From: Cyanidioschyzon merolae
Taxonomy: Eukaryota
Reading direction: 5' to 3' (one strand)
DNA: 64,000 bases
Assembly: GCA_000091205.1 (NCBI GenBank)
Contig: AP006486.2
The position numbers and the translations under genes are program-made. Positions 191 to 54,837 of this stretch are shown piece after piece. Positions within the stretch are counted from its first letter, which is position 1. Every line of letters begins with the position of its first letter. The notes below the pieces were generated by a model that worked only from the letters and a program-made list of their open reading frames with translations, searched no databases and was not told where the DNA came from.

Positions 191-338
191 GTCCAGAACA
201 ACGTGTGGTCTGCGAGCGTACGCCAAGTGGGTGGCTTTTCCCTCTTGTGCAGTTTTTGGAGCTCCAGCTCCACGAACATTTCTACGCGAACAGGTTCCGT
301 TCGTCGAAGCTACGGAGCAGTAGCGACACAGCTCACCT

Positions 339-641
339 TCAAAGGTTTAGATAGTTTGCGACGCTGAGCAACTGCAGTGACTTCTCCTCCGGTACCGGGA
401 AGCGCGGCAACTCTGTCCCATACCAGTTGCACTCACACTGTCGGTAATAGTAGACGTAGTCTAGACACCATTCGAGCAGCTCCTCCTCGATATCGTTGAA
501 AGTTATGCAGCGCTCACGCTCTTCGCGAAACCCTGACTCCAGCATAGAGCGTAGCGTCTCGGAGACGGTTGCACAGTGGTAGTGCACGTAGAAGCAGCGC
601 CCACTTGCACCGACGATTTTCACATAGTCCGTAGGTTGCAT
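339..641 (-). CDS. Elongin C-like (Skp1/BTB-fold family) protein
   Basis: 100-aa ORF 'YVKIVGASGRCFYVH...CITFNDIEEELLEWCLDYVYYY...LPRFPVPEEKSLQLLSVANYLNL' is collinear with Elongin C (YVKLISSDGHEFIV...[24 protein letters not shown]), including the C-terminal hydrophobic LxxAANxL motif. Confidence 0.7.
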   Translation of the reverse strand: MQPTDYVKIVGASGRCFYVHYHCATVSETLRSMLESGFREERERCITFNDIEEELLEWCLDYVYYYRQCECNWYGTELPRFPVPEEKSLQLLSVANYLNL

Positions 642-5944: not shown

Positions 5945-8900
5945 TCGAGAGCGAGTGCCCTACAAACTATTGCAACCGCAACGCACCGCCTGTCGAGGAA
6001 TGAGCGCTTTCGTTCAACGCTTCCCGTAACAGCACAGGGGTATGGATCTAGCTGGTGAAGTCGCACGAAAGCCTGGTTAATGGCGGCTTGTCTAATGGAG
6101 CTGAGAGGTATCGGTCGGTGTAGCGAAGAAGTCGCCGTTTGGCTAGCGCTCCTGCGGACAATCGCAAATTCGCTGTTTCGTGAAAACGATCGTGTGGCAT
6201 CCCGAGGGATGAAAAGTGGTTGCCTCTGTATGCGGCAACTCGAGTGCCTTGCAGCTTTTTGCAACCATAGGGACATCAGCAAGCATATGCCGTGCATACC
6301 ACGCCAGGATAGAATCCCAAGATAAAGAATGTTGTATGGTAGAATCCAAGGGTTCTGCAGCGAGAACAGCTCTCTATGCATACCAGTGAACTTTCGAAAT
6401 CTGGTACCCACATGCATTTTTTGTTTCTGTTTGTTGTTCTCGCAAGTATTCAATGGAAGGAATGTATCCTGCAGCTCGTAGAAAGGCCATGGAGAGCCTT
6501 GATGCTGTCGCTGCTCCCCAGAAGAGAACGGTCTTGGTTGTTCAGGTCAATCATTCTACCGAAAAAACGTGGCTTGACGAGACCACAAGTCTCGAAGTCT
6601 CCACTCTGGACGTCGTGAACTCATAACAGAGCTTGCCCAGTCCGATGTACTCGACTGCCTCCTTGTCAATCCATTCTTGGCTTCCGTTCTCTACCATATC
6701 CTATGAAAGGAGCCGCAGGATTTAGAGATTCCGTACGGTTCGTATGAAGGGTGATGAAGAGATTCAGTTGAATAGTGAAAGCGCACGCTTCCACCCGAGA
6801 GTATCGCGTACGGATCAACAAGCTATTGATTTCTTACTGAAGCACCAGCACTTTTCACAGGAGGAACTGGTGTTTGTCCAACTCGACCAGACTCCATCCG
6901 AGAGAAACTGGAGTCATGTATACGGATTGTCAGAGAGGGATAAACCAGTTTACGAACGGCGAGCAACGGCGAGCACATTGGAAACATGCGCCCTAGCGGC
7001 AATCGCGTCTTGTGGTAGACTAGAGATCGCGAAACTGACATGATCGTTGGACATCTCATTCTTTTCCAGAAGCTTTCTGTGGCTTCTCGTCGGCGCATAC
7101 ATCTGTGGTGCTCGTAGACACCGTCGTTTTCTATCGCTCTTTAGCGGTCATGGAGTACTCGACTGAGACTGGCCTTCAGCTGATAATTTTCGATCTGGCC
7201 TCCTCTGCCCTGCTGAATCGAGTCGAGGGCGTCTTCGCTGGTATCCACCTCCATTTTGACGCTCACGGATCAATGAACGAGTCTTTCGCATCCGCCATAC
7301 CGTCCTCCAACCAATCATTTTCAATGTTCACCAGCCCAGACCTGTGTTGCTGCGCATTTGCTCATGCACGGGAGGAAGCGCAGGGCCGCGCTTCGGTCTG
7401 CAGGCGTGCTTACAACGCGGAAGGTGAGGAAAACTTGCCCGAGGAATAACAGACACTTTCATAGAACAGCTTGTTTCGGTCCTACCGTCTAACCAGTGCA
7501 TATTCATCCCGGGGTAAAGGAGGGATACAGCGTATAGCATCCACATACACACCGTGCCGGCCCGTAGAGGAGAAGGAGAAGAAACCAATAGACAGAGAAG
7601 AGAAGCATCTTCACGAAAGGAAGATACAATGGAGCACAAACGATGAACTCATGACGCGGAAAGACCAATCTGCAATCGGTGTCAAGGCCTGCTATCAAAA
7701 CACAACTTCGGCATGTATCTTCCGAAACGTACGCTGCAGGACGCCAGTAGGATTCGCGTATCTTCGCTTACCCTGACACGTCTCATCAAGCATCTATTCG
7801 TAGCAGCACTGGACGCATGGCTGCCAGCTTTCACAACCCTACCGAGGTTCTCGATGAAACCTTCAAGCGACGACTGAAATCCGAGACAGAAAACGCACTA
7901 CGGCCTGATCAGCGGTTGAGCGCTGTGGAGAGGCGTTTTCCAGAATAGCTTGACGCGTCACCGCGTCGAGAAGAACCTCGCCTGCACCGGTACCAAGGGG
8001 TACCGACGCATTCTCAAGAGCCAAATCCATATGCGGGTCAATATCGAGCGCTTTATGCGACATTGGCACACGTGTATTTTGGGCGTTCGGCTCGCTGTAG
8101 CCTGGTCTTGCAAACCCCGAAAAGTGCAAACATATGGGAGGGATTCTTGGAGTGTCGATGGAAACGGGTGACGAGCTTGTGTTCGCGGAAGACATCGAGG
8201 CTGTTGCGAGTTCGGAAACGATGTCACAACGAGAACGAGAGTCGCTCCGCATCACTCAACTTGATGGTGCTGCTTTCGGCCTCGCTGCGGCGATATGCAT
8301 ATCCAAAGCATTTCTGGAACTCGATAGCCGCTTTGCTAGCGCCCTGTTATGCTATCTTTTCCTGAACAGAGTTATACAAAACGAAAGTGACGCTCATCCC
8401 GAATCTGAGGCGCCAGCTAGCCGCCTCACGCGTCCTGGCGAAGCGATCCCTATATACTACATCAAGGCTCACTGTATCACTGCAGGCACGTTCGTAACGT
8501 GCTGTATGGCCTCTTCGACGAGCTGCGACTGGCCCCTGCAGCCCAGCATCAAGAATTCGACGAGCTTCACGAAGGGCATTACGTTCGCTCGCTCGAGGTT
8601 TCACGTTTACTCGGAAGAGATGGGAAAAATTTTACAGGGACGATATAGACCAACGACATATCAGTCTATGCCTACTTTGTGACACCTATACATGAGTCTA
8701 GCAACCAGAATCCTTCGCAACCTTTCAAGGTAGATGCAGAGAATCACTTTCTGGTGAGCGTGGATCCCACGTCTAGCAAAATCATCGCCGTCGCCGTCCC
8801 TCTACATCAAGAGAACGGAGCCAAAGACCTGAAACCGAAACAGATCATATTCCTCAACTTTTTTAGAGCTCGGTACCATTCAGTGTCAGACGTGATGGAC

Positions 8901-9057
8901 CCCAAGAAGCAAACGAACATATGGAATGACGGTGACGGGACATGTTTCGATTCTCTGACCACCGTATCCAGCTGATCGGTGTATGCTTTGTAGGCTTCAG
9001 TCCGAGCGCGTATGAACGTCCAAACGGATCGTGCTAACGATATCCTCCAGAAGTATA

Positions 9058-9235
9058 CGAGGCCGCTAGAAGTGTACAACGGATACGGTTGCACACAGGC
9101 AAGAGGCATCCATTTTGCAGCGTGTTCATTGAATCGGAAAAAAAGAAGTTACCGAGGCCGCTAGAAGTGTACAACGGATACGGTTGCACACAGGCAAGAG
9201 GCATGCATTGTGCAGCGTGTTTATTGAATCGGATC
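9058..9235. repeat. Local tandem duplication (about 2 x 100 bp)
   Basis: 'gaggccgctagaagtgtacaacggatacggttgcacacaggcaagaggcat.cattttgcagcgtgtt.attgaatcgga' occurs twice head-to-tail; overlapping minus-strand ORFs share 'MPLACVQPYPLYTSSGL'. Confidence 0.7.
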
Positions 9236-10185
9236 AAGATAGTACTGAAAAGCCTCTTCGTTAGGTGGTAGCCTACGGCACTGGACGTTCTGTGACGCGC
9301 AAGAACTACACTCCCGCTGGTTCAGCGGCAGCGCACAACGAGTACGCGGACCGATACAGCACGTTCGCAGTCAAAGCGTTTTGAATGACATCAGCGCATC
9401 GCGAGCACAGGTGCAAGCTGAAACAGTTCACGAAGACGATCGTGAACCAGACCCGCGTTTCTGAAATGGTGAACAGTCCGATGACCGATCCTCAAGTACC
9501 GGAGCAGTCGAAGCTAACAAGCTTGCTTCGGTGCGATTCCACCCGCAAGTGCAGGCGAAAGCGCACGCTGCACTGACACTTGAACTCTTCGATGAACGGA
9601 CGGGAAAGTATCGAGCATCGGGAGCATCCGGTGGGTTTGTACACGTCGCACTCGCGAGTGAACCGCCTAGCGCTCAGAGTTGGCATCGTTTTGCAAAGTC
9701 GAGCACGTACGATGAGAGAAACATAAGCAATGGCCAGGAGAAAGGCGAACGGGTACCCGTTTGGGGCAACGTTCCGATATGGTTTGTTCCAGGAATCCAA
9801 TAAGGCTAGAGCGCCGTACATAAACATAAGGCACGGTTTTCCTAGGCAATTTCTGAATGACAATGTTGTCCCATCCTTCCAAGACGCCAAACCGACTGCA
9901 CCAGTTGACCCAAAGACAAGTCGCTTGGTTTCGAAAGCCTCCAGAGATTCTGCGGCTGCTCCTGTGCTTATTACGGTTGTCTAAACAGTATGCCGATGAA
10001 TCTTTGAATGAAGCGACGACATGACAATGACTAGAATACAGTGCACCGTCGATGGTGCACTCCAAGCAGTGCCGCTGTGAGCGCAGCGCCATGCCGCGTC
10101 CCCATTGGAACAACGATGCATTTTCTGATCAGGTTACACGCTTCGGCTGCATAGATGCAGGACATAGACCAAAGATTTTTACAGC

Positions 10186-14741: not shown

Positions 14742-15848
14742 TTGCTTCCACTCATGGACGCGAAATGGAGTCCTGTGGACCTAAATCGCGGGCCTCAGAT
14801 GATGCGGCCTGTTCAAAGTGCATTTCTTTCAACCGCAACACCCACAGTGCCTGTGCGTTTGCTGCCGAACCTGACACTCGTGCAGCGCTCTCGCAGTCGC
14901 GCACTAGACGCACTCCATTTGATCACACTCAGAACCCGCTGCATCTGGCCTTGGAATATGTCTGCAGCGCCTGGTGCGAACGAAGGCGACCCAGCGACGA
15001 AGAGCAACTCCGCGAACCGTTTTAATTCTAAGCGAACAGAACCCAGTTTGTTAAACTTGTTCAGTTGGGGAGAGTTGGATGATTCACGTGCGGGAACCGA
15101 GAACGACGATGAAGATGATGGCTACGACGATATTTCATCCGACAGTGATGTGGATCCAGTTCTCGACCGTGGACGCGTGTTCGGTGCTTGGTTAGACAAC
15201 CAGGTTCTGAGACTGGATCGGATCCAGAGCGCTGCGATGCAAGCACCGGGCCAGACGCTACAAGAGCGAGCCGAGCGGGCTTTCGCGCGAGGCGTACAAG
15301 CTCTAACTGACGGTCACTATGCCACAGCGAGCGATGCCATCTTCCAGGCATCCGCATTGCCTGGACAGCAGACTCGACTTGGCGGCGAATATCTGCTCTG
15401 GCTTGCCCAGGCACTCGATGCTCAGGGCAAGAATGCGCGCGCTCAAGAGGTTCTCCGACGCCTGCAGTATCACAAAGACAGAGACGTGCGCCAGGTAGCT
15501 GAGAGTCTATTGTTTATCCTGCAGGCACCGCGGCTGCGTCTCGGCCCAGAGTCTTTCGTGAAAATCGACCTCGACGCCCTCTTGAATCAGAATCGGGCAC
15601 GCGATATTCCCGGGTGGAAGAAGAGGCAACGGAGATACCGGTTCGGAAGCGGCTCCTCTGCAGCGCTCGCTGGCACTGGCAAGCGCCGCAGAGAGCCGAC
15701 GAAATATTCCCTAGAATGGTTCACGTCGCAGGAGAGCGTCTCTGCGGAGGAACTTGAACGCGCGAACCAAGCATCACGCGCGGCTATGCTTGCATCGTCC
15801 GGTGTTATGCTGCTCATTCTGTTTATGCTACGTTTTCTCGGAAGGTAG
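14742..15848 (+). CDS. Hypothetical protein with a TPR-like helical repeat and a C-terminal transmembrane anchor
   Basis: 368-aa ORF; a later Met ('MSAAPGANEG') may be the true start. Acidic tract 'ENDDEDDGYDDISSDSD'; TPR-like 'AERAFARGVQALTDGHYATASDAIFQASAL...LLWLAQALDAQGKNARAQEVLRRL'; hydrophobic C-terminus 'VMLLILFMLRFLGR'. Confidence 0.4.
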   Translation: MLPLMDAKWSPVDLNRGPQMMRPVQSAFLSTATPTVPVRLLPNLTLVQRSRSRALDALHLITLRTRCIWPWNMSAAPGANEGDPATKSNSANRFNSKRTEPSLLNLFSWGELDDSRAGTENDDEDDGYDDISSDSDVDPVLDRGRVFGAWLDNQVLRLDRIQSAAMQAPGQTLQERAERAFARGVQALTDGHYATASDAIFQASALPGQQTRLGGEYLLWLAQALDAQGKNARAQEVLRRLQYHKDRDVRQVAESLLFILQAPRLRLGPESFVKIDLDALLNQNRARDIPGWKKRQRRYRFGSGSSAALAGTGKRRREPTKYSLEWFTSQESVSAEELERANQASRAAMLASSGVMLLILFMLRFLGR

Positions 15849-16799
15849 CGCAAAGCCCGCCTATTTGCTCCAAGACTGAGCGTTTCGTTGTGCGGTGGAG
15901 CCACGGAATCCAACATTTCTATTTGTTCGCTTGTACACGGACATGATAAGTACGATTTACACACACCAGCGCTATGCAACAAGCGAGGCATTCGCATACG
16001 AACGATGTCCAGTATATCGGTCTAAACATCGAAAGATACTCGGTTCGGAGGATATTTAGCGGATGCAGTATGCAACGGTGCACCGCACGAGCGCAGCACA
16101 AGGTCCAGCCATTTCATATGTTTGCGCCGATGTTCCGCTTGAGTCACCAAGGAAAGGAACACCTGGTTTATTCGTGAGCCACTCGGTTGACCACTTACCA
16201 CAGCACGCTTCCTCGGCCGCAGACAGGCAAGCGATCTCGGGTATCGATGCGACTTGCTGAAGACAAAGTCGACCACTTGAATAGGTCCAAACCAGCCAGC
16301 TGCGGAGAGACTGGTCGGTCCCGTTCAGCCAGGCTTTCTTTGCGTGAGTTTCTGAGGTACACCCCACGCCCACCCTACACTGTTGAAGCTATTTGGCATA
16401 ACTTGAGCGTCCCAGTTGGACAGCAGAACACCAATAGACACGCGAAATTGAACCACGGCCGGCCGGGTCTCTGTCACGGAAGCTTGACGCGGTGACTGCG
16501 CTGGGTCTCCTATGAGGAACCGGTCGGACGACCACGAGCGATCCGTTCCACGATAGCACCGTCTGCCAGGACGTCAACAGCTAAGCGAAGCGTGCGCACG
16601 AGCGCATCCAGTCTCTCGTCGAAGCGCTCTAGCTGGGCTTCGAGCACCCGCAGCGCTACCACTGTGCGCTGGTACGCCGCTGCCGCCTGCCGTAGACACT
16701 CCGTTTCTCGTTGTAGCTGCTTCTCCCAACTGGCAGGCGATCCCTCCGTCGTCGACGTCTCCGCTGCCATGGAGAACACGCACACACCGACAACGAATG

Positions 16800-19395
16800 C
16801 CTTTTACAAGAAAAAACGTTGCTGCCGCAAGTGGTATAGTAGTGGCGACAAACGCACCGTAGACAAGGAGTCTTCAGCCGACGTGCAGACGCATCTCAGT
16901 CTTTCTCGACCGGCCACCCACTACTTCTTCCAACATTTTTTCATATAGTTCGAGTTTGAGAGGTTGTCCAACAAAATTCTATCTCGTCCACTCTGGAAGT
17001 CTATTCTCCAGCACCGCACGTCTCCTTATATTGATAGCGGCATTAATGTCTCGGTTCACAAACTCCATCCGTTTCTTGCCATCACTGGATGTACTTAATA
17101 ATGCGAGTAGTCCACGAACTTTCGCTCTCCTTTCCATTTGCTCCTCCGTCAACGGTCCGTGCTTTGCTATTTCCTCAGGGCTCCGCTAATACTTTTCCAT
17201 CTCGACCCTCTGAAGTGTACACCCCAGTTCATGGTGTGTATACGATGTTCGGAAGTCATCTACGGGTATCGTAACGAAACGCCGTGCGCACTCCTTGCAC
17301 GTTTTTGTCGTTGGAGCTGGTGTAATGCCTTTTTTCGACGCCCAGCGCCCTGCTCCATACGCTACTACGAGCCTCTGACTTTCATTCTCCCTCAGGGCGC
17401 TCAACTGATTGAAAAAGTTCGAGAACGCCCGCTGCTTCCCACAATACAAATTCATACGCAAACGAGCCCACCGGGGCTTGGTGGATTCTTTCCACAGGGC
17501 ATCCCAATGAGCAGCGCGAACTTCCATGAACTCCCGAAATGCTTCAAAGTCGGTTCCTCGGCTCGTCACCTCGCTCAAAGCTTCCAGGTGATCCCTCACT
17601 CCTGACTTCTAGGTCTCATTTTGTTTCCTCGCATTCATTATACCGGAATCCCGGTAGGATCTCGCTCTCGGGAACTTGAAAACTCGCATGTCTTTATGAC
17701 GTAAATTGTCGTCGACACTATCTTCCGCACGCTTGGGTACAGCGACGGTTATGATATTTGTGTTTCCGGGGTCCGCGCCAACGACAAAGCCGTTATCGTG
17801 CACTTTCTGTGTTGCACGATCCACCTCCTTCTTTTCTCGATGCTTCGCCGCGTCAACGACAAAGCCGTTATCGTGCACTTCGTGTGTCGCAGGATCCTCC
17901 TTCTTCGTACCTTCATCCTTCGCCACGGGCGGAGCTGGACGATCTGTCTTTAAGCGCCGATAGTGTACAGACATGGCTACTCCATCGTTTTCGATCATCC
18001 CAGTGAATACCTTTCGCTTGCTCACTTTCAGACGTTTGAAATCGACGAAATTCTTCTTCCAGTGCGTCTCCCGGCTTTCGCCGGAGAACTCCTCCCTGCT
18101 GACATTGAACTCCGGACTGATCTCCCTCATGATGCCGTAAAGGACGCCTGAATCGATAGTCACGAAATGTGACCTGATGTTGCACATTGGAACCACGTTG
18201 AAGCGCTTCCCCATTAGGAAAGCCTTCCGCCTCTCCCACTCTTCATTTGTCTCCTCATTCAGCTTCATTTCCGCCTTGCGTTCCAGCTCTCCGTCCAGCA
18301 ACACGAAATAGCGCAGGGCGAGGCGATAGTATCTTTCCTTATCTTTTTTCGACTCTGATAGCTTGTCTGTTGGACTCAGCAGCCCCAGTACCGCACGATG
18401 CTCTTCTACAACCGCACGGATGACAGAAGCTTCATTCGTGCTCTCGTTTGACGCCTTCTCTCCGACGAATTCGATCTCCTGTTCATGCTTGCGATCGTTC
18501 GTGACGCCATTGGTAATCGCCCATTTTCCTTTGCGAGCGATGCCAGGGTACAGCGCAAACACGGCGCGTATCATGAAGCGTTCGAGGTTCATAGTAAAAT
18601 GGTTCTTCAGGTTCCTGATGTACTTCATCGCTCCGTATGTGTAAATGCACCAGTCAATTTTGTATCGAGTACCGTCGAAGCTCTAAAAGGGATGTTTTTC
18701 GTGGAGGGCATGCACTAGCACATTTTCCCTCGGCGCTTCCGCTGTACCAAGCATCAGGTGTCGAATAAAGGTCTTATCGAGAAACCCGTCCGGAATCCCG
18801 ACCGTTTCCATCTGCGCCACGTCGCGATACATCTCCCTCGCCATATGCATCAGTCCTGAAGACGCCTTGACAATACTCTTGGAGTATGACGCAACACTGT
18901 TTTCGATAGCGTCTCGCAGCTTTTCCCTGTACGGATCCTTGATATTTTTAAGAAGACAGACTTTCACCACCTTCTTGTCGCACAGTCGTCTTTCGTGCCG
19001 CCTTCGACGCAGAGCGTCCCACTTTCAGTCCTTCTTCTCTTCCTTTTCTTCTGGACTTGGCACTGTTTTTCTGTTTTTTCTGGCAGCCCGCGACACTGGG
19101 CCTCCAGGATCATCGACTTGCTTTTCATAACTTCCTTTTTTTTGTTTTTTTTTGGAAAACAACGCTCCCTCCAACGCCTCTGATATAAACAGCGAGGAAA
19201 ACTTGAATAAACCAAACTGAGGGTTGAAATATAACTGAACTGAAAAGTACACTCTGCTATGACTTTAACGCAAATGCAACTTGTACTTGAGAGCAACACG
19301 CTCAAGATCGCGATCCCGTTTCCCTTCAACGACGACATGCGCGTCGTATCTCATGCCTGCCAGATATGGAGGTGCGCGTATCGACCGCGATGCCC
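16800..19395 (-). mobile_element. TnpB/Fanzor-like (IS605-OrfB-type, OMEGA nuclease) element, copy 1
   Basis: Minus-strand ORF fragments encode a Lys-rich NLS-like N-terminus (KKKQKKG...RKNRK), RuvC-I '[16 protein letters not shown]' (Asp near 17770), the zinc finger 'CKECARRF...SYTHHELGC', and RuvC-III 'RDINAAINI' (after the in-frame TAG at 17186-17188). About 180 bp of conserved 3' UTR reaches a sharp homology boundary near 16803 shared with three other loci. A subterminal palindrome 'cgacgacatgcgcgtcgt' lies at the 5' end (about 19335-19352). Confidence 0.7.
16980..19252 (-). pseudogene. Fanzor/TnpB-like nuclease gene, disrupted (frameshifts plus in-frame TAG) or intron-containing
   Basis: The coding potential is split over ORFs 19025..19252, 18683..18970, 17609..18628 and 17186..17599, then continues after the TAG to the stop at 16980-16982. 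The frame order differs from copy 3, so at least one copy is frameshifted. Confidence 0.55.
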
Positions 19396-19399
19396 CCTG

Positions 19400-20560
19400 G
19401 CACTGTATGGGCCGAGGGGCCCACCATGCGCACCCGGTTCAGTCGGATATCCATGCAGACCCCAACGCACCGCAAGAACACTTGGATGAAATCGATGCAG
19501 ATTTGGCTGAAGCGACGGTTATGCGAAAACACGCTCGAATCGTTCCCCAGAAATGTAGAAGGCTCCTACCGCCTCAAGCGAACTGTTCGAACAACCATAT
19601 GGGAACGTAGACACGGAACCAGTCGCGCCAGTAACGCCCGCCTTGACTCTATACCGGAACTACAACCTAGCATACACATGCGAGTACTGGTGGGAGGCGC
19701 TGGAGTTCCCGGGACTTGCTCGCGGTATCCAGTGGCTCGCCAAAATCCGCGTTGGTGGTTGCTGACTACCAGCACCTGCGCTAAACCATATAGGAACACT
19801 GGAATCGCAGTGGGAATCACACTGTCCCTGCTGTGGAAACGATAAACCCGAGACGCTGACATATTTAGGCTTACAGTGCGCGCGCTGGAAGCAGGAGCGC
19901 AGCGAGCTCCTTGAAGGACGGCATCAGCCGGGTATCACCGTGATAGTCGAAGGCCGGACACTCACTTTGAGTGCAGCACTGGCAACTGATGGTCCGCTAA
20001 CGGAGCCTCAGCGCTCATTCGTGGCCAACAGACTCACGTGCTACCTTCCAAGCGGAAGGTCTAGCGAATCGGACGCGCACACGGGTTTAGTATGCTTTCT
20101 GCGCCTATCCACTGTGGTGAGCGTCAAGCACAAACCCGCATTGCCAACCGACAACAACGCGTTCCATGCATGATCACGAAGGAGAGAGACGACTCCCAGA
20201 ATATATCTTAACGGCCAAGTGTCTCCAGCGTGTCGTGCCGCGAAGGCAAGCTTGCATCCGCAGACCGTCCGAGCACAAACTGACGACGAGACCCGATTCT
20301 ACGTCGGGTGAAGCACCCCTCGAGCCGACGCCCTCTGTGGTATGGAAAAGCCGTTCTAGCTCGATAAACTCTCTGCCCCAGCGGTTCAAGCGCAAAGGCG
20401 GATATGGAACGGCAGGTATTAGGTACCCACGACAGGACGTATGAGACGATCAGTATCTCCAAGAAGAAGTATAGGTAATGTAACTTGGAGGGAGGGGGCT
20501 TTATGGATATATTACCGCGCGCTGAAGTAAAACGCAAAACAAAAGAGAACGAAAAGAAAA
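19400..20560 (+). mobile_element. 5'-truncated non-LTR retrotransposon (LINE) remnant with a CCHC tail and A-rich 3' end
   Basis: Frame-2 translation around 19820-20173 gives 'HCPCCGNDKPETLTYLGLQCARWKQERSELLEG', the C..C...ET..[HY]L..C..W..ER zinc knuckle typical of LINE ORF2 C-termini. The 3' roughly 270 bp (20290-20560) is homologous to the 3' part of the SINE-like family and ends in 'aaaacgcaaaacaaaagagaacgaaaagaaaaag'. Confidence 0.35.
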
Positions 20561-20599
20561 AGCGCACAATAGGAGAATGCTGGCCCAAGTAAACGTCTT

Positions 20600-23125
20600 A
20601 TCAATAGAAAAATTGCCGTCGTTGAAGGGAAACGGGATCGCGATCTTGAGCGTGTTGCTCTCAAGTACAAGTTGCATTTGCGTTAAAGTCATAGCAGAGT
20701 GTACTTTTCAGTTCAGTTATATTTCAACCCTCAGTTTGGTTTATTCAAGTTTTCCTCGCTGTTTATATCAGAGGCGTTGGAGGGAGCGTTGTTTTCCAAA
20801 AAAAACAAAAAAAAGGAAGTTATGAAAAGCAAGTCGATGATCCTGGAGGCCCAGTGTCGCGGGCTGCCAGAAAAAACAGAAAAACAGTGCCAAGTCCAGA
20901 AGAAAAGGAAGAGAAGAAGGACTGAAAGTGGGACGCTCTGCGTCGAAGGCGGCACGAAAGACGACTGTGCGACAAGAAGGTCGTCAAAGTCTGTCTTCTT
21001 AAACATATCAAGGATCCGTACAGGGAAAAGCTGCGAGACGCTATCGAAAACAGTGTTGCGTCATACTCCAAGAGTATTGTCAAGGCGTCTTCAGGACTGA
21101 TGCATATGGCGAGGGAGATGTATCGCGACGTGGCGCAGATGGAAACGGTCGGGATTCCGGACGGGTTTCTCGATAAGACCTTTATTCGACACCTGATGCT
21201 TGGTACAGCGGAAGCGCCGAGGGAAAATGTGCTAGTGCATGCCCTCCACGAAAAACATCCCTTTTAGAGCTTCGACGGTACTCGATACAAAATTGACTGG
21301 TGCATTTACACATACGGAGCGATGAAGTACATCAGGAACCTGAAGAACCATTTTACTATGAACCTCGAACGCTTCATGATACGCGCCGTGTTTGCGCTGT
21401 ACCCTGGCATCGCTCGCAAAGGAAAATGGGCGATTACCAATGGCGTCACGAACGATCGCAAGCATGAACAGGAGATCGAATTCGTCGGAGAGAAGGCGTC
21501 AAACGAGAGCACGAATGAAGCTTCTGTCATCCGTGCGGTTGTAGAAGAGCACCGTGCGGCACTGGGGCTGCTGAGTCCAACAGACAAGATATCAGAGTCG
21601 AAAAAAGATAAGGAAAGATACTATCGCCTCGCCCTGCGCTATTTCGTGTTTCTGGACGGAGAGCTGGAACGCAAGGCGGAAATGAAGCTGAATGAGGAGA
21701 CAAATGAGGAGTGGGAGAGGCGGAAGGCTTTCCTAATGGGGAAGCGCTTCAACGTGGTTCCAATGTGCAACATCAGGTCACATTTCGTGACTATCGATTC
21801 AGGCGTCCTTTACGGCATCATGAGGGAGATCAGTCCCGAGTTCCATGTCAGCAGGGAGGAGTTCTCCGGCGAAAACCGGGAGACGTACTGGAAGAAGAAT
21901 TTCGTCGATTTCAAACGTCTGAAAGTGAGCAAGCGAAAGGTATTCACTGGGATGATCGAAAGCGATGGAGTAGCCATGTCTGTATAGTATCGGCGCTTGA
22001 AGACAGATCGTCCAGCTCCGCCCGTGGCGAAGGATGAAGGTACGAAGAAGGAGGATCCTGCGACACACGAAGTGCACGATAACGGCTTTGTCGTTGACGC
22101 GGCGAAGCATCGAGAAAAGAAGGAGGTGGATCGTGCAACACAGAAAGTGCACGATAACGGCTTTGTCGTTGGCGCGGACCCCGGAAACACAAATATCATA
22201 ACCGTCGCTGTACCCAAGCGTGCGGAAGATAGTGTCGACGACAATTTACGTCATAAAGACAAGCGTCTGCTGATGTTGTCAAGAGCTAGATATTACCGGG
22301 AATCCGGTATAATGAATGCGAGGAAGAAAATCGTTTCATGGAATTCAGGAATGAAAGATCACCTGGAAGCTTCGAGCGAGGTTACGAGCCGAGGAGCCGA
22401 CTTTGAAGCATTTCGGGAGTTCATGGAGGCTCGCGCTGCTCATTGGGATGCCCTGTGGAAAGAATCCACCAAGCCCCGGTGGGCTCGTTTGCGTATGAAT
22501 TTCTGTTGTGGGAAGCAGCGGGCGTTTTCGAACTTTTTCAATCAGTTGAGCGCCCGGAGGGAGAATGAAAGTCAGAGGCTCGTAGTAGCATACGGAGCAG
22601 GGCGCTGGAAGACCCAAAAGGGACTATGCCAGCTCCAACGACAAAAACGTGCAAGGAGTGCGCACGGCGTTTCGTTACGATGCCCGTAGATGACTTCCGA
22701 ACATCGTATACACACCATGGACTGGGGTGTACACTCCAGAGGGTCCAGATGGAAAAGTATTAGCGGAGCCCTGAGGAAATAGCAAAGCACGGACCTTTGA
22801 CGGAAGAGCAAATGGAAAGGAGAGCGAAAGTTCGTGGACTACTCGCATTATTAAGTACATCCAGTGATGGCAAGAAACGGATGGAGTTTGTGAACCGAGA
22901 CATTAATGCCGCTATCAATATAAGGAGACGTGCGGTGCTGGAGAATAGACTTCCAGAGTGGACGAGATAGAATTTTGTTGGACAACCTCTCAAACTCGAA
23001 CTATATGAAAAAATGTTGGAAGAAGTAGTGGGTGGCCGGTCGAGAAAGACTGAGATGCGTCTGCACGTCGGCTGAAGACTCCTTGTCTACGGTGCGTTTG
23101 TCGCCACTACTATACCACTTGCGGC
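20600..23125 (+). mobile_element. TnpB/Fanzor-like element, copy 2 (inverted relative to copy 1, about 97-98% identical)
   Basis: Same ORF set on the plus strand: 'MKYIRNLKNHF...', RuvC-I '[10 protein letters not shown]' (Asp at 22177-22179), and 'RDINAAINIRRRAVLENRLPEWTR' (Asp at 22899-22901). The 5' end is about 25 bp shorter than copies 1 and 3; the homology boundary is near 20625. Confidence 0.7.
20699..22968 (+). pseudogene. Fanzor/TnpB-like nuclease gene, disrupted
   Basis: Nonsense TAG at 21985-21987 (copy 1 has 'cac' His). A frameshift near 22610 replaces 'ASKKGITPAPTTKTCKECARRF' with 'KTQKGLCQLQRQKRARSA'. The in-frame TAG is at 22751-22753. Confidence 0.6.
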
Positions 23126-23194
23126 AGCAACGTTTTTCTTTCGAAAGGCGTTCGCTAGCAGCCTTCGATGATGCGTTCTTCGGGAACAGCTGCG

Positions 23195-23880
23195 TTTTTT
23201 TTTCTGATGAAAAAATGGTTAGATTCACTATGGATCCCAGAATTCGGAATGGATAATGGCTTTCGGGAAAGCGTCCACGATGAAGCGCCTACCTTCAAGT
23301 TCTATCACGCATACTTCCTCTCGGATATACTGGTCGTTTCGTATATTCTATCGTGCGCCGAGCCTGCCGTGAACACCCGCCGTAGCGCTTATACCACTGA
23401 AGCAGATGCCACACGGAGACAGAACGGCTTTGCCATACCACTGAAGGCATCGACTCGAGGCGTGGTTCCTCCGACGTGGGGTCGGAGTACATAATATATC
23501 TGGGAGCCTGTAAGCTGCGCAGACAGACGCACTGCCTGTGGCAGCGCGGAGCGATCTACAAGGAGTCCACTGTGACCACGGAGACGCCCAGACGCAGCAT
23601 CCTGCTCCAAGTCCCCGAATGAAATGCGTTGCGGACGAGTTGTGCAGGTATCGCCACAAAACCTGCCATTGGAGGAAGCATGAAGCACTAGCTAGCCCCG
23701 AAGACTCGTCCGGCTCGCGGGACCTTCCGCCTAGAAGGTAAAGTTTCGAAGATGCGGAAACTTTCCCCCTTTTCCATGAGTCATATCAAGGTCGAAAGAA
23801 ACTGTTATCGAGTTGCTAGTCAGTTGTTAGTTTCTGTTCTTTCGTCTCTAGGAGAAAGCTCGCTGCTCACGGTCGGGCAC
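23195..23880 (-). mobile_element. SINE-like non-autonomous retroposon, copy A (about 0.68 kb) with A-rich tail
   Basis: Collinear (about 85% identity by eye) with 29325..29990 and, in reverse, 49770..50455. The tail on the element strand is 'catcagaaaaaaa' (plus-strand T-run at 23203-23210). Confidence 0.5.
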
Positions 23881-24251
23881 AACTCGAGGGCCCACCAGTT
23901 CGAAAACTGGCTATTGCTGCTGCTGCCCCTATGCAACGCGCTGGAGTGCGCTCGCTCTACAACCTCCTGTCCGCGCCCTTGGCCAAAACTGACCACCTGT
24001 GATCAACGCGCGATCGCAGCGTTGTGTGGTTGCGTCGCTTCGCGAGGAAGCGCGCAGGCCCACGACCCGTGTGCGGATGACGCCGACATTGAGATCGCGC
24101 TCGCGATGGCGATCGCAAACAGACTTCAGGGCTCGCCGTTGTGCTCGCGACTCTGTTTCGTGAACAAAGCCTGCGCACTTAGCACGCTCATTTTATATCG
24201 ATTCATTTAGGAGCGCCAGCAGTGATCTAGAAGGAGAATAGAAGCGCTACA

Positions 24252-25328
24252 ATGTTGAGGTGCGACTTTTGTGAGACGACGGAGACGCCATTATGGCGCG
24301 CGGGCCCTCGCGGACCCAAGACTCTGTGTAACGCCTGTGGCGTGAAGTGGAAAAAGGGGAAGCTTGATGGCTTCGGTCCCGGTGCCTGTAATGTGCCCAG
24401 AACGCACACGGGAAAGAGGCATCCGCGAGCGGTATATGGAAGACCTCGTCGAGCAGGTGCCGTCGCGGATGCGCTGGAACTGCCTTCCCCGGAACGCAGC
24501 CTCAGCAAGTTCCGGGGAAGCGTCCGTCCGGGTTGGTATGTGCCGTCCGAACTCGAGTACTCTGGCAGAATTCAACACCCGAGGCGGAGTAGCTCGCCGC
24601 CTGAAACACGCTGTGCGTACGTTGACGTTGATCGTGAGGACTCAGCACCGGTCGTGCGAGAGCAGTTTGCGCCCTCTGTTTTCGCACCCAGTATTCCTTG
24701 TCGCGGAGAGAGCGCGCCTCTTAATATTGTGCGAAAGGATGCAGGTCGTGGTCCCGGAACACAACATACAACGTTACCGGCGGACCACTTGATTCGTGAG
24801 TCGCTGTTCGTTCGCGTCGATAGTGAACGGGCGTTGGCGTCGGACCCCATTGGGTATCCAGCGGCGATACCGTCCTGGGATGACGTCTCCATTGAATCGC
24901 TCTCCGAGGATGGTGACGGTGCCGACAACTACCATGACTTGGAGCTGAACCTGCCCGAACAAATGCCTCTGCCCGACGCTGCGCATACAAGTACGCACGT
25001 CCTCGGAGGTGAGCATGACTGGCGTCACGCCCAAGGCGCTGCATCTGGGGAAACTGCCTTGCCACTGCCACTGCCGCTGGCACCCGCGAAAGGCTCACTA
25101 ACGAAAACCATGGAACGTGAGCCTGTGGATGCTGCTACCAAAGGTGTCCGTCTGCTCCTAGATGCAGCGCGGTACGTGGAGTACGCGAGCAGCCCGCTCT
25201 CGTCGCAGTGGTCACCCCTGAGATCGGCATCGTCCAGCGCTCCGCCGTATCACCAGGCTGGTACCTCGTCCCCGAACCGTCTCACACCATCCTATCTAAC
25301 ACCAATGGTGCTGGAGAAGGACTGGTAA
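24252..25328 (+). CDS. GATA-type zinc-finger transcription factor
   Basis: The N-terminus 'CDFCETTETPLWRAGPRGPKTLCNACGVKWKKGKL' is a canonical C-x2-C-x17-C-x2-C GATA finger including the TPLWR and LCNACG motifs; the rest is low-complexity Ser/Pro/Ala-rich. Confidence 0.7.
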   Translation: MLRCDFCETTETPLWRAGPRGPKTLCNACGVKWKKGKLDGFGPGACNVPRTHTGKRHPRAVYGRPRRAGAVADALELPSPERSLSKFRGSVRPGWYVPSELEYSGRIQHPRRSSSPPETRCAYVDVDREDSAPVVREQFAPSVFAPSIPCRGESAPLNIVRKDAGRGPGTQHTTLPADHLIRESLFVRVDSERALASDPIGYPAAIPSWDDVSIESLSEDGDGADNYHDLELNLPEQMPLPDAAHTSTHVLGGEHDWRHAQGAASGETALPLPLPLAPAKGSLTKTMEREPVDAATKGVRLLLDAARYVEYASSPLSSQWSPLRSASSSAPPYHQAGTSSPNRLTPSYLTPMVLEKDW

Positions 25329-29183: not shown

Positions 29184-29324
29184 GTCACCCTGCAGCTGAA
29201 AGCACAGGCGAAACGGCGCTTTCCTGAACCGCTACCAGCCACGTAGATACAGCACTTTGAGCATTGAAAAAGTAAGGCTGCGGGCGCCTGCCGCAGTGCC
29301 GGTGCGCTGGCTCTGTTATCCCTT

Positions 29325-29990
29325 TTTTTCGATGACGAAACGTTTATATGGACCGTGGATCCCAGATTGCTGAATCCATACAGGCTTTCGGGAATGTTTC
29401 CATTATGCAGGGCAATACTCCCAAGTTCCGTCACGTATACTTCCTTTCGGATATACTGGTCGTGTTGTACATGCTATCGTTCACAGAGTACCCGCTGTGA
29501 GCGCTCGCCGTAGCGCCTTTACCGCTGGTGCGGATGAAGCGCGGAGACGGAACGGCGTTGGTATGCCCATAGACATGTAGGCTCGAGGCATGGTGCACCT
29601 GATACGGTGTCGGAGTACGTAGTAATTCTGGGAGCCTGCAAACTGCGTAGACAGACCTACTGCCTGCGGTACCGGGAGGCGATAAACTAGGAGTCCACCG
29701 CGACCGGGGTGATATCCAGATGCAGCTTAACTGCCCCTAGTCCTGGAATAAACTGCACTGCGGACGAGTTGCTCAGATCTCACTGAGGCACGAGGCACAG
29801 TGGGGAGCAAGAAGCGCAAGCGCGGCAAACTCGTCCGGCTCACGGGACCTTCCGCCTGGAAGGTAAACTAGCGATAATACGGAAACCTTTTCCCCTTTTA
29901 CCGTCTACGTTAGAGAGGGAAAGAAATCGCTATCTCGTTCCTAGTTCGTGGTTCGTCTCTGTTCTCTTTTCTATCCCACATCAATCTATG
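29325..29990 (-). mobile_element. SINE-like retroposon, copy B
   Basis: Homologous to copy A over its full length ('ggatcccagattgctgaatcc...', 'gtccggctcacgggaccttccgcctggaaggtaaac...'). A-rich tail on the element strand (plus-strand 'ccttttttt' at 29325-29333). Confidence 0.5.
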
Positions 29991-33734: not shown

Positions 33735-34545
33735 ACAGAGCAGTCTGCATCCGGGCCAGAAAAGGCATACGCATCCCAGCCTGCAGTGTCGTGCATTTCC
33801 GATAATCCGAATTACACATAGAGCAGTCTGCATCCCGACCAGAAAAGGCATACGCATCCCAGCCTGCAGTGTCGTGCATTTCCGATAATCCGAATTACAC
33901 ATAGAGCAGTCTGCATCCGGGCCAGAAAAGGCATACGCATCCCAGCCTGCAGTGTCGTGCATTTCCGATAATCCGAATTACACATAGAGCAGTCTGCATC
34001 CCGACCAGAAAAGGCATACGCATCCCAGCCTGCAGTGTCGTGCATTTCCGATAATCCGAATTACACATAGAGCAGTCTGCATCCGGGCCAGAAAAGGCAT
34101 ACGCATCCCAGCCTGCAGTGTCGTGCATTTCCGATAATCCGAATTACACATAGAGCAGTCTGCATCCCGACCAGAAAAGGCATACGCATCCCAGCCGGCA
34201 GTGTCGTGCATTTCCGATAATCCGAATTACACATAGAGCAGTCTGCATCCCGACCAGAAAAGGCATACGCATCCCAGCCTGCAGTGTCGTGCATTTCCGA
34301 TAATCCGAATTACACATAGAGCAGTCTGCATCCCGACCAGAAAAGGCATACGCATCCCAGCCTGCAGTGTCGTGCATTTCCGATAATCCGAATTACACAT
34401 AGAGCAGTCTGCATCCGGGCCAGAAAAAGCATACGCATCCCAGCCTGCAGTGTCGTGCTTTTCCGATAATCCGAATTACACATAGAGCAGTCTGCATCCG
34501 GGCCAGAAAAAGCATACACATCCCAGCCTGCAGTGTCGTGCATTT
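33735..34545. repeat. 83-bp tandem satellite, about 10 units, two alternating variants
   Basis: Unit 'cagtctgcatcc[g/c]g[g/a]ccagaaaaggcatacgcatcccagcctgcagtgtcgtgcatttccgataatccgaattacacatagag' repeats with an exact 83-bp period (ORF starts at 33812, 33895, 33978, 34061, 34144 all 83 bp apart). The array generates the chained 77-aa 'MHDTAGWDAYAFSG...' artefact ORFs. Confidence 0.9.
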
Positions 34546-51389: not shown

Positions 51390-54145
51390 GCCTCCAAACA
51401 CCTCTCGAAAGTTCAACGACGTCACCGTTGTACAGTAGTGGCGAGTGACCCGCCCTAGACAAGAAGTCTCCGACTGCTATGCAGACGCCTCCGCGTCTTT
51501 CTCGACCGGCCAACTACTACTGCATCCAACTTTTTCTCATATACTTCGACTTTGAGAGGCTGTCCAACTATGTTCTCTCTTGTCGACTCTGGAGGTGTTT
51601 CCTCCAGCACTGCACATCGCCTTGTATTGATAGCGGCGATAAAGTACCGGCCCACAAACTCCATCCGTTTCGTGCCCCCGTTGGTTGTACTTACTAGCGT
51701 GAGTAGTCCACGAACTTTCGCTCTCCTTTCCACTTCCTCCTCCGTCAGCGGTCCGTACTTTGCTATTTCCTCAGGGCTCCTCTGGCAATTTTCCATTTCG
51801 ACCCTCTGAAGTGTGCACCCTAGCTCGTGTTGTGTGTAGGAGGTTCGGAACAGATCTATCGGTTTTGCAACGAAAAGCCTTGCGCACTCCTTGAACACCC
51901 TCGTCGTTGGAGCTGGCTTAGTGCCTTTCTTGGGCGCCCAGCGCCCTGCTCTGTATGCTGCTACTAGCCTCTGATTTTCACCCTCGTTCAAGGCGCTCAA
52001 CTGATTGAAAAAATTCGCGAACGCTCGCTACTTACCACAATACAGATTCATTCGCAAACGAGTCCATCGGGGCTTTATATACTCCTCCCACACCGCATCC
52101 CAATGCACAATGCGAACTTCCATGAATATTCCGAAAAGATTCAAAGTCCGCTCCACGGCTCGTCACCTTGCTCATAGCTTCCAGGTGCTTCTTCAGTCCA
52201 GCATTCATATCTCGATTTTCTTCCACTCATTCAATATACCGGATTCTCGATAGTATGTCGCTCTCGAGAACCTCAAAAGGCGCATATCGTTCTGACGAAA
52301 GTAACCGTCAGTAACATCTTCCGCGCGCTTGGGTACAGCGATGGTTACGATATTTGTGTTTCCGGTGTCCCCGCCAACGAAAAAGTCGATATCTTGCACT
52401 TTCTGCGTCACAGGATCCACCTCCTTCTTCTCTTCATGCTTCGCCGCGCCAACCATAACGTGGTTATCCTGCACTTTCTGTGTGGCAGGATCCGCCTACC
52501 TCTCATCTTCATCCTTCACCGCGCCAACGACAAGGTCGTTATCCTGCACGTTCTGTGTCGCAGGTTCCGCCCCCTTCTCATCTTGATCCTTCACCGCGTC
52601 AACAACAAGTTCGTTATTCTCCACCTCCTGCGTTGCAGGATCAGACTCCCCCTTTTCTTCATCCTTCGTGACGGGCGCAGCCGAGGGAGGGACTGGCCGA
52701 TCTTTCTTCAACCACCGATAGTGTACAGACATGGCTACTCCATCGGTTTCGATCATCCCTGTGAATACCTTTTATTTGCTGACTTTCACACGTTTGAAAT
52801 CGAAGATATTCTTCCACAAAGGCTCCCGGATTTCACCGGTGAGGTCCTCCCTGTTAACATTGAACTCCGGACTGATCTCCCTCATGATGCCGTAAAGGAC
52901 GCCTGAATCGATAGTCACAAAATGTGACTTGATGTTGCTCATTAGAACCACGTTGAAGCGCTTCCCCATTAGGACAGCCTTCCGTCTCTCCCATTCTTCA
53001 TTTCTTCCTCAAACAGCTTCATCTCCGCCTTCCGCTCGAGCTCCCGGTCCAGAAACACAAAATACCGCATTATGAGATAATAGTATCTTTCCTTATCTTT
53101 TTTCGACTCTGATATCATATCTCTTGGATTCGCCAACCACAGTACCGCACGTTGCTCTTGTCTAGCCGCACGGATCGCAGAAGCTTCGTTCGCGCTCTCG
53201 TTTACGCCTTCTCTCTGACAAATTCGACCTCATCTTCACGCTTGCGATCTTTCGTGATGGCCTTGATAGTCGCCCGTTTTCCATTGCGAGATAGGCCCGG
53301 GTAGAGTGCAACCACGGCACGTAACATAAAACGTTCGAGGTTCACTGTCAAATGGTCCTTCAGATTCGTGGGGTACTTCATGGGCCCATATGAGTGAACA
53401 TCCCGGTAACCCCAGTATCGAGTACCACTGAAGCTGTAAAAGGGATGTTTTTCGTGGAGGGCATGCACCCGCTCATTTTCCTTCCGAGCTTCCTCTGTGC
53501 CAAGCATCAGCTGACTAACAAAGGTCTTGTCGAAAAAATCTTTCGGAATCTCTACCGTTTCCATGTGGGTCACGTCGCGATCCATCTCCCTCGGCAAATG
53601 CATCAGTCCTGACAACGCGTTGACAATACTCTTGGAGTAAGAGGCCACATGTTTTTCGATAGCGTCTCGCAACTTACCCTGTAGGGATCCTTGATATGTC
53701 CAAGAAGGAAGGTTTTCACCACCTTCTCGTTGTAAAGTCGACTTTCTTGCCGCCTTCGATGTAGGGCCTCCTGCTTTCGGTTCTTCAGCTCTTCCTTTTC
53801 TTCAGGACTCGGCACTGCTTTTTGTTCTTTTCTGGCAGCCGGCGACCTTGGACCTCCAGGATCGTGGGCTTGCTTTTTCATAAATTTCCTTTTCTTGTTT
53901 TTTAAAGATAACGCTCTTTGAACGCTTCTGTTAGATACTGCGCAAAACACTTGACTAGACTTGTTTGAAGCTTGAAACGAAAATGAACAGAAACACTGTA
54001 CTTTGCTAGGACCTGAACGGAAATTTAACTTTTTTCCAGCTGAACAACACGCTAGAGATCATAATCACGTTTCCCTTCAACAGCGGCACGCGCGTCGTGT
54101 CTCATGTCTGTCTGATCTCCGAGGTGCACTCACCGAGCGCGATGC
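51390..54145 (-). mobile_element. TnpB/Fanzor-like element, copy 3 (diverged, nuclease-dead)
   Basis: Minus-strand ORFs 53603..53950 (NLS-like 'KNKKRKFMKKQAHDPGGP...'), 53202..53672, 52496..52756, 52205..52474 (RuvC-I '[17 protein letters not shown]') and 51455..52000 (zinc finger 'TSYTQHELGCTLQRVEMENCQ'). It reads through the position that is TAG in copies 1 and 2, but the RuvC-III motif has degenerated to 'GRYFIAAINT' (Asp->Tyr, tac at 51644-51646). 5' and 3' terminal blocks are homologous to copy 1. Confidence 0.65.
51455..53950 (-). pseudogene. Fanzor/TnpB-like nuclease gene, frameshifted and catalytically degenerate
   Basis: At least two frame changes relative to copy 1 (for example 'DPYRVSCETLSKNMW' versus copy 1 'DPYREKLRDAIENSV') and the RuvC-III D->Y substitution. 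Extra internal ATQ.V.DN.[LF]VV[DG]A repeats. Confidence 0.6.
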
Positions 54146-54837
54146 CTGCACCGCGCGAGACGCCTCAGCGATCGATGAAGGACACGTGTTCGACAACCCG
54201 CCTTGGCACATGCTTGTACGCATCGCACTGCAGCTGAAATAAACTATCGTAGATCGGAAATTGACGTAGAACGATCTCCTGCTATAGACTCTGTCGCTGG
54301 TGCCGACGCTACTGCCCATCGCAGTACCGCCCCGACATACAAGGGGCTGTTGGGGCCTGACACAAAACCCCTCGACGCTTCTATCAAAAGCGTAGCGTTC
54401 TCTGCAGCTTCCGCTTGTGTGGATGAGTTGTGCATCAATCTTCTCGTTAGGAATTTCATTTGTTTTATTGATCGTAACCAAACAAGGTAAGGTAGTATTC
54501 CTGGACTCGTATATGCGTCTGTTCGTGATGCTTGTTATGCATGCCGCACGGACGCTGCAATGAGGAAATGACCTGAATTGTGCTTCGATCTTGCGTCATA
54601 CGCTGGTACTGATGGCAGTTCAAGCCATTTGCATGCTATCGTCTTTGTCCAAGTTATGGTGCTTGCTACTCTCCCGGATCCGGTGATCTTGGTAGAGGCA
54701 TCGCATACATAGAGTGTCTATACTTAGCATTCCATTTGACCGACGCATCCGCCAAAAGCACATACTGTATTCTGATCTACTCTATAAGATTAGTTTCAAG
54801 AGCCTAACCCGAACATCGAGCCCGGAAGCGACAAAGC

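Follow-up and report, generated by a model that had tools for sequence, protein, structure and literature searches.

Two decayed inverted Fanzor1 copies in Cyanidioschyzon merolae, most probably of the known family CMe-1A and probably homogenised by conversion

A 64 000-nucleotide stretch of the Cyanidioschyzon merolae genome (contig AP006486.2 of assembly GCA_000091205.1; hereafter the window) carries, in opposite orientation, two closely similar copies of an element encoding a protein that resembles the TnpB and Fanzor RNA-guided nucleases, and the question raised by this locus is whether the pair moved recently and stands for a family that may be uncharacterised, as proposed in a first-pass annotation of the same DNA, or is the remains of something older. 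The second answer is favoured here: the window very probably contains two decayed inverted copies of the Fanzor1 body of the transposon family CMe-1A, which flank a 1.2-kb 5′ module and have probably been homogenised by conversion. The find is real but already known, the family being on record. The inverted repeat itself agrees with the first-pass description of copies of about 2.55 kb that are 97–98% identical: its arms, at 16794-19337 (minus strand) and 20614-23154 (plus strand), measure 2544 bp, are 96.97% identical and lie 1276 bp apart. The copies and the spacer are as follows.

16794..19394, minus strand: copy A, Fanzor1 element body, a pseudogene of about 2.6 kb, with ATG at 19126-19128 and stop at 16874-16876
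20614..23154, plus strand: copy B, Fanzor1 element body, a pseudogene, with ATG at 20822-20824 and stop at 23073-23075
19395..20613, no strand assigned: spacer 'upB' between the arms, a recurrent 1.2-kb 5′ module of the transposon family
51390..54146 (approximate), minus strand: copy C, about 80% identical to A and B, heavily decayed
about 7950-9603, plus strand: a fourth, Fanzor1-like relic, strongly decayed, found by tblastn

The identity between the two arms spans 16794-19337 of copy A, the family-wide 5′ boundary being at 19394; the 3′ end of copy A probably lies about 10 nt past 16794, and copy B is without the initial 57 nt of the family 5′ end. The window shows four members of a large, old C. 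merolae Fanzor1 family in varied states of decay. The earlier mention of several near-identical copies therefore stands as regards the additional copies (copy C and the relic at 7950-9603) and falls as regards near-identity, which does not extend beyond A and B, the others being 80% identical or far less.

The conceptually repaired window protein comprises 751 amino acids. Searched alone, it gave just a sub-threshold Pfam match to PF07282 (E = 0.11) and no match in a single-sequence search of the PDB. Its relatives are many in hot-spring metagenomes, at 52–80% identity, with one (P0034) at 28%, and their only precomputed annotation is DUF8286; a profile built from the close relatives alone (A1) also found no PDB match. 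A second search seeded with P0034 gathered about 30 diverse full-length proteins, some of which carry PF07282, and the link to the solved Fanzor1 proteins emerged solely after this search, with a combined alignment that includes the repaired window protein (profile A2). Profile A2 matched PpFz (9cf0; E = 2.3e-25), SpuFz (8gkh; E = 1.8e-19) and GtFz (9cer; E = 2.4e-11), the matches to all three extending from WED through RuvC-III, and the next-ranked PDB matches were IscB chains at E ≥ 0.008. Pfam PF07282 is found in nine family members, and the basal relatives that keep the zinc finger match it. The first-pass identification as TnpB/Fanzor-like is thus borne out and sharpened to Fanzor1, and the profile comparison with Fanzors that it had proposed succeeds with the family profile.

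The same assignment is given by the predicted fold of a close intact relative, P0001, which shares 69% identity with the repaired window protein across 93% of the length and is nearly complete, wanting just its start codon and the extreme C-terminus. Its AlphaFold2 model has a predicted local distance difference test score (pLDDT) of 78.7 and a predicted template-modelling score (pTM) of 0.76, and in a Foldseek comparison with the PDB the top seven matches were all Fanzor1 (E = 2.9e-16 to 3.8e-13, best template-modelling (TM) score 0.70), followed by Cas12 variants only at E ≥ 5e-3, with no Fanzor2 or TnpB chains at E < 1e-3. At E ≤ 1e-3 the family counts 8,424 cluster representatives, and at E ≤ 1e-30 it counts 1,464; the Fanzor element is multi-copy, with boundaries common to about 50 loci. 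No other domain-bearing open reading frame (ORF) was found inside or beside the copies, and no IS607 serine recombinase. An intact body of about 2.6 kb would encode a single Fanzor1 protein of about 750 amino acids with WED, REC and RuvC domains and a finger-less TNB domain.

The Fanzor fingerprint described by Yoon et al. (2023; PMC10711439) consists of DPG in RuvC-I together with a glutamate relocated six residues before the zinc finger, and the same authors regard a TDG motif in the WED domain as typical of Fanzor1. In SpuFz1, D383, E541 and D606 coordinate magnesium (Saito et al., 2023; PMC10432273), and in the HMMER alignment these residues align with the Asp of DPG, the Glu of VDEFRTS and the Asp of NRDxNAAINI, respectively. 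The corresponding sites in the window, and a repeat next to the first of them, are listed below.

17753-17779 (minus strand, copy A) and 22171-22197 (copy B): RuvC-I, GADPGNTNI, with DPG and the catalytic Asp
52349-52375 (copy C): RuvC-I, GGDTGNTNI, DPG decayed to DTG
17342-17371 (copy A) and 22579-22608 (copy B): LVVAYGAGRW
17243..17263 (minus strand, copy A): RuvC-II relocated Glu (Ealt) site, VDDFRTS, Asp codon at 17255-17257; the Asp of copy B at 22692-22694
51839-51859 (copy C): Ealt site, IDLFRTS, with Leu
17027-17056 (minus strand, copy A) and 22893-22922 (copy B): RuvC-III, NRDINAAINI
51623-51652 (copy C): RuvC-III, decayed to GRYFIAAINT
17773..17927 (minus strand, copy A, 2 units), 22023-22177 (copy B, 2 units) and 52369-52667 (copy C, 4 units): 75-bp repeat

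The motifs quoted in the first-pass annotation (GADPGNTNI, LVVAYGAGRW and NRDINAAINI) were all placed in copies A and B. Residue counts were made on 136 relatives, the nearest cluster representatives, of which all keep the RuvC-I Asp and 133 the RuvC-III Asp; in 140 relatives neither the D nor the G of DPG varies, and the P is conserved to at least 90%. The canonical RuvC-II position is occupied by Gly (AYG), and the relocated-glutamate arrangement, which had been suspected with the alternative residue left unplaced, is confirmed: the residue is that of VD[E]FRTS, opposite E541 of SpuFz1 in the alignment, and the place of the relocated catalytic Glu in this lineage is thereby fixed within VDEFRTS. 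All 136 relatives have Glu in this column, and the change to Asp in A and B or to Leu in C is pseudogene decay. The sequence FTGxIxTDGV is at least 90% conserved across the family, its last motif reading TDG in copy C, NDG in A and SDG in B. Just upstream of RuvC-I lies the in-frame tandem repeat of 75 bp (25 amino acids), with the unit KHEEKKEAxPATQxVxDNDFVV, which reaches about six copies in metagenome copies of the element and is predicted to be disordered in the model.

The zinc finger read at first in CKEC...HxxxxC could not be upheld. The first Cys of 'CKEC' is Y, F or S in relatives, and the conserved KEC sits in a helix upstream of the relocated Glu; the true finger position, ExxxxxxCxxC...CxnC, directly after the relocated Glu, is without Cys ligands in the C. 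merolae group, which reads EFRTSYTHHELGC...RGLLALVSTT at this position (0/4 ligands). The four-cysteine (C4) finger was called strictly conserved by Bao & Jurka (2013; PMC3627910). Here the C4 pattern CxxC...CxnC is kept in 4/36 close relatives and in about 26–30 of the 136 nearest cluster representatives, and the D/E/D triad is kept in 133–136 of these 136 despite the lack of the C4 finger in about 80% of them. Because the basal relatives that keep the finger do match PF07282, the absence of C4 is a lineage-specific loss within the family and not evidence against homology.

Every Fanzor copy in the window is a pseudogene. A 1-bp deletion directly after the ATG is common to A and B, as are four in-frame stops (TGA at 19025/20923; TAG at 18683/21265, 17186/22761 and 16979/22968). 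Copy A has in addition a private TAG at 17609, and copy B a private TAG at 21985 and a frameshift near 22610-22625, which brings the in-frame premature stops to five in A and five in B. Copy C has sense codons at all of the stop positions shared by A and B but carries multiple stops and frameshifts of its own, and all three of its catalytic positions are altered or damaged. Introns or a variant genetic code as the cause of the stops were rejected, because copy C and the intact relatives have sense codons there, the intact relatives are colinear across the stop positions and the frame is otherwise colinear. Fanzor ORF fragments are absent from the protein collection searched and are apparently unannotated. 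Comparison of copy A with the other copies (all pairwise) gave a divergence of 15.5%, 13.6% and 22.0% at codon positions 1, 2 and 3, respectively, and of about 12%, 12% and 25% in the RuvC half, and part of the divergence of the family therefore arose under purifying selection on the protein, as was likewise deduced for the past of the family by Bao & Jurka (PMC3627910).

The anatomy of the element was drawn from 80 related loci, found with the alignment of the close relatives. The Fanzor body, about 2.6 kb long, forms a discrete unit whose boundaries recur in about 50 copies: homology to other copies begins at 19394 in A and at 54146 in C, and stops within about 10 nt of 16794, 23154 and 51390. 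Upstream of the body stand at least three alternative modules, namely a 640-bp repeat, the spacer at 19395-20613 and the sequence upstream of copy C. The spacer is about 82–86% identical to DNA directly upstream of Fanzor bodies in other loci, with its junction B-like in four of them (L017, L019, L031 and L032) and A-like in three (L001, L003 and L004), and it carries an inverted fragment of the 640-bp repeat (R2) at 20293-20495; the ORFs of the spacer and flank gave no Pfam domain match. The 640-bp repeat is non-coding, its copies are 66–77% alike, and it occurs in the window at the following positions.

23197-23840, plus strand: 640-bp repeat
29323-29965, plus strand: 640-bp repeat
49832-50423, minus strand: 640-bp repeat
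20293-20495, minus strand: fragment of the 640-bp repeat

In many metagenome loci the Fanzor body is immediately preceded on its 5′ side by this repeat of about 640 bp, an arrangement that fits the element TE-N2_CMe. In the window the repeat follows copy B after 43 bp and copy C after 1 kb, in each case on the 3′ side and in like orientation, which suggests head-to-tail chaining of elements.

The 5′ end of the body forms a short GC hairpin, for example GCGCTC-GGT-GAGCGC. At the other end, in A and B, only about 80 nt separate the stop codon from the 3′ terminus, and these form a short tail.

16794..16873 (minus strand, copy A), equivalent to 23076-23164 (copy B): non-coding 3′ tail with box and terminal hairpin

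The 180–400 bp of conserved non-coding 3′ sequence ascribed to each copy in the first reading are thus reduced to about 80 nt after the stops at 16874-16876 and 23073-23075. Within the tail, the box CGCCACTACTrTAC (CACTACTGTAC; CGCCACTACTGTAC) is nearly invariant and is followed by a terminal hairpin of 10–11 bp that occurs in two sequence types, CGTTCGA/TCGAACG and AACGTTTTTC/GAAAGGCGTT, copy A having type II. The stem is kept in both types, in the second via G.U pairs, which are workable solely on the sense strand, and the folding z-scores are −3 to −5 in well kept copies, −3.3 in B, −1.15 in the decayed copy A and +0.4 in C. Judged from sequence, the box and hairpin would fit the end of an omegaRNA and/or a transposition signal. 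No terminal inverted repeats (TIRs) or target-site duplications (TSDs) were found at A and C, and a search for the asymmetric inverted repeat of Helitron2 was negative, the mean best complementarity being 4.17 between matched ends as against 4.19 between unmatched and 4.11 between shuffled ones (n = 23). The hairpins at both ends and the lack of TIRs and TSDs are traits like those of IS200/IS605, and neither the window nor the loci examined yielded a transposase. A solo 3′ tail, with box and hairpin and no Fanzor ORF, was also seen at 54840-54936 (minus strand), 700 bp upstream of copy C, and this composite (last ~110 nt shared) is kept in the paralogous locus L016 at about 300–500.

These features fit a family that has been published. 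Bao & Jurka (2013; Mobile DNA 4:12; PMC3627910) described one Fanzor1 family in C. merolae, CMe-1A, with about 150 copies that are about 80% identical to a consensus of about 3 kb, without TIRs and with TSDs that could not be determined; its 5′ 635 bp are 95% identical to a second element, TE-N2_CMe, and intact ORFs persist in some copies. The window agrees with this description in species, in copies that are 80% alike, in the lack of TIRs and TSDs and in a length of about 3 kb when a TE-N2-like 5′ part is included. Shared too are the single Fanzor1 ORF, the degenerate state of many copies, the joining of a non-coding TE-N2_CMe of about 640 bp at the 5′ side of many copies, and signs of long-term retention of coding capacity. 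Nothing was found that contradicts membership. TE-N2 stands upstream in 0/3 window copies. The discrete 2.6-kb body, the alternative 5′ modules, at least three in number, and the end with conserved box and hairpin go beyond the text of that paper. The proposal of an uncharacterised family accordingly gives way to a family described in 2013.

The reason for the 97% identity of A and B is best sought in the distribution of their 78 differences, which is uneven, ranging from 0 to 26 per 100 bp, with none over stretches of about 400 bp and about 350 bp and with concentrations in two tracts.

17588..17687 (copy A) and 22264-22363 (copy B): A/B hot tract, 26 differences per 100 bp
17287-17387 (copy A) and 22564-22664 (copy B): second, weaker divergent tract

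In the hot tract A and B each carry their own derived changes with respect to copy C and the family consensus. In a related genome, locus L004 shows the same arrangement of a minus-strand body, spacer and plus-strand body at a different genomic site, with arms that are about 82% alike, and copy B is present at the same site in two wild strains (L083 and L090) that are 1.1–1.6% diverged from the window. An empty site was sought via contigs that carry the neighbouring GATA gene, and none was found, all metagenome contigs breaking in or just downstream of copy B. The identity of A and B is best explained by concerted evolution, with gene conversion between the nearby inverted repeats of an old, already inactive pair, because the differences are mosaic, the native junctions occur independently, L004 repeats the arrangement, copy B is shared between strains and five lesions are common to both copies. 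As a separate observation on L004, its positions 1-5677 are 98% identical to L001 4401-8415 and the two diverge exactly at the end of the spacer module, past which L004 continues into the inverted second Fanzor body and L001 into a host 2OG-Fe(II) oxygenase gene; the cause is either a polymorphism, through insertion or rearrangement, or a repeat at which the assembly was joined.

Of the other explanations, the one to be taken most seriously is that A and B descend from one recent inverted duplication of a dead copy, by segmental duplication or trans-mobilisation, and that the divergent tracts arose later through ectopic conversion, with other members of the family as donors, or through local hypermutation. 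Such an event would account for the overall identity, for the five shared inactivating lesions and for the shortness of B on both sides, by 57 nt at its 5′ terminus and by about 10 nt at its 3′ terminus, as would be seen in a copy made without transposition. It is nevertheless less likely, since both arm–spacer junctions are 'native' and have been seen independently in the loci named above, the same inverted arrangement exists in L004 with arms far less alike, and A and B each have derived changes of their own in the hot tract. The proposal of the first-pass annotation, namely a Fanzor that moved recently, is potentially functional and belongs to an uncharacterised family, having a zinc finger and a long 3′ untranslated region encoding an omegaRNA, drew on the high identity of the copies and on catalytic-looking motifs readable in translation, to which the well preserved 3′ terminal hairpin of B (z = −3.3) may be added. 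Against it stand the five premature stops per copy, the shared 1-bp frameshift after the ATG and the second frameshift in B, an Asp in place of the relocated Glu found in every relative counted, the absence of the zinc-finger ligands, a non-coding part of about 80 nt only, the publication of the family in 2013 and the age of copy B, which exceeds a strain divergence of 1.1–1.6%. We consider it very improbable; recent mobility of an active copy is unsupported, because the 97% identity of A and B goes together with five shared lesions and mosaic differences.

The least probable alternative, to which we attach almost no weight, concerns the protein itself, which could be another RuvC-fold protein such as a horizontally acquired bacterial-type TnpB, a Cas12-like protein or an unrelated transposase. 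The sub-threshold PF07282 match, the empty single-sequence PDB search and an annotation that goes no further than DUF8286 would be compatible with this, but profile A2 matches three solved Fanzor1 proteins from WED to RuvC-III, the Fanzor1 fold matches are better than those of any Cas12 by more than ten orders of magnitude, and the combination of DPG and Ealt is a Fanzor fingerprint that occurs in less than 1% of TnpB-family proteins (PMC10711439). The Fanzor1 TDG motif is present as well, and the host and the flanking genes are eukaryotic.

The reading of the locus as an old pair of CMe-1A bodies homogenised by conversion has several points to contend with. The case for gene conversion comes from the pattern of differences alone; the second arm of L004 is situated where its contig ends and has no counterpart in the 98% ortholog L001, so that it may be an assembly join; the modelled fold is that of the 69%-identical relative P0001 and not of the window sequence; and the name CMe-1A is taken from the published description and from the single family listed for the species. 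Most of the lineage is without the C4 zinc finger, which every solved Fanzor has. As for the 3′ tail, RNAalifold on a MAFFT alignment of the tails gave essentially no consensus structure, because the two hairpin types are out of register, the registers having been judged by hand and by single-sequence folding, and an Rfam scan of 16000-24500 gave no match at E ≤ 1.

Judged by its homology to SpuFz1, GtFz1 and TnpB, the intact protein would be an RNA-guided double-strand DNA endonuclease, with a predicted active site composed of the DPG Asp, the relocated VDEFRTS Glu and the NRDxNAAINI Asp; in P0001 these residues are D484, E656 and D725. The 3′ end of the element would give rise to an omegaRNA that overlaps the end of the ORF and runs through the CACTACTGTAC box and the terminal hairpin; by analogy, its guide would be taken from the flanking DNA, and cleavage would take place at matching DNA next to a short motif. 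The window copies are incapable of these steps owing to the shared frameshift and four stops, their private lesions and the replacement of Ealt by Asp. As to the movement of the element, it is conceivable, if rather improbable, that the CMe-1A body is a mobile unit of the single-strand type without a transposase of its own, which moves in the manner of IS200/605 or by rolling-circle copying, and that the finger-less Fanzor1 and its 3′-end omegaRNA maintain or spread it by cutting empty sites, followed by homologous recombination. This is allowed by the GC hairpin at the 5′ end, the box and hairpin at the 3′ end and the lack of TIRs and TSDs, as well as by the head-to-tail chaining behind ORF-less elements and the occurrence of ORF-less elements that share just the 3′ tail.

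Among the known systems, SpuFz1 (PDB 8GKH and 9CEU-9CEZ, with PpFz1 and GtFz1 being similar) is comparable in overall fold (Foldseek E = 3e-16, TM 0.70 on the target), in the positions of the D/E/D residues (D383, E541 and D606), with the Glu relocated beside the TNB domain, and in the DPx motif of RuvC-I, the TDG of WED and the basic N-terminus. The sequence identity is only about 14%. SpuFz1 has a CCCC zinc finger, which is lacking here and in about 80% of the 136 nearest cluster representatives, and the C. merolae family has the variable 25-amino-acid tandem-repeat insertion before RuvC-I; furthermore, SPu-1 has TIRs of 30–33 bp and a TA TSD, whereas the C. merolae element has neither. TnpB of IS200/IS605 and IS607 (for example ISDra2) may be likened to it as a RuvC nuclease with a right-end omegaRNA that overlaps the 3′ end of the gene, and the IS200/605 elements likewise have no TIRs or TSDs and have subterminal hairpins at both ends. 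However, the C. merolae protein is about 350 amino acids longer and has the relocated Glu in place of the canonical one of ISDra2, no TnpA gene lies nearby, the host is eukaryotic, and the role of the hairpins in transposition is here putative. The Helitron2-borne elements CRe-1, CRe-2 and CRe-3 of Chlamydomonas (Bao & Jurka, 2013) also reside in an algal host, are non-autonomous with Fanzor1 as sole ORF, and share the hairpins near both ends, the variable or truncated 5′ end, the well kept 3′ end and ORF-less relatives with the same 3′ end. In contrast to these, the search for the asymmetric terminal inverted repeats by which Helitron2 is defined was negative, matched ends scoring no higher than unmatched or shuffled ends; a partner encoding RepHel is not known here, and the C. 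merolae ORF is without introns.

A large Fanzor1 clade thus keeps an intact D/E/D triad without the C4 finger found in every solved Fanzor and TnpB, and the sharp ends of the element, with 3′ box and hairpin, are a concrete place in which to seek an omegaRNA, the more useful as this alga is genetically tractable and recombines efficiently by homology. Only two parts, the clade without the finger and the well-defined ends of the element, appear worth following up.

The ortholog of copy C in a 98%-identical strain is L075. The relic at 7950-9603 has 27–32% amino-acid identity to the CMe protein and P0001 (tblastn E 1e-13 to 1e-25), an example stretch being VSVDPTSSKIIAVAVP...FFRARYHSVSDVM, and no nucleotide similarity to the other copies or to the 80 related loci was found; it may be a much older insertion or belong to a second family unlisted for C. 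merolae. Inside this relic lies a 90-bp tandem duplication (9049-9138 and 9144-9233, 93% identical).

With regard to the neighbourhood, four flanking ORFs of the window are exact C. merolae 10D proteins, BAM79229, BAM79230, BAM79233 (a GATA factor) and BAM79234, and the annotated BAM79231 and BAM79232 must fall between 12450 and 24252. The ORFs that flank copy A, at 16510-16785 (minus strand) and 14742-15848 (plus strand), have no Pfam domain. Finally, a tandem array of an 83-bp unit, with about ten copies that are 96–98% identical, occupies 33737-34545, and its copy number is apparently different in the related strains L083 and L084.

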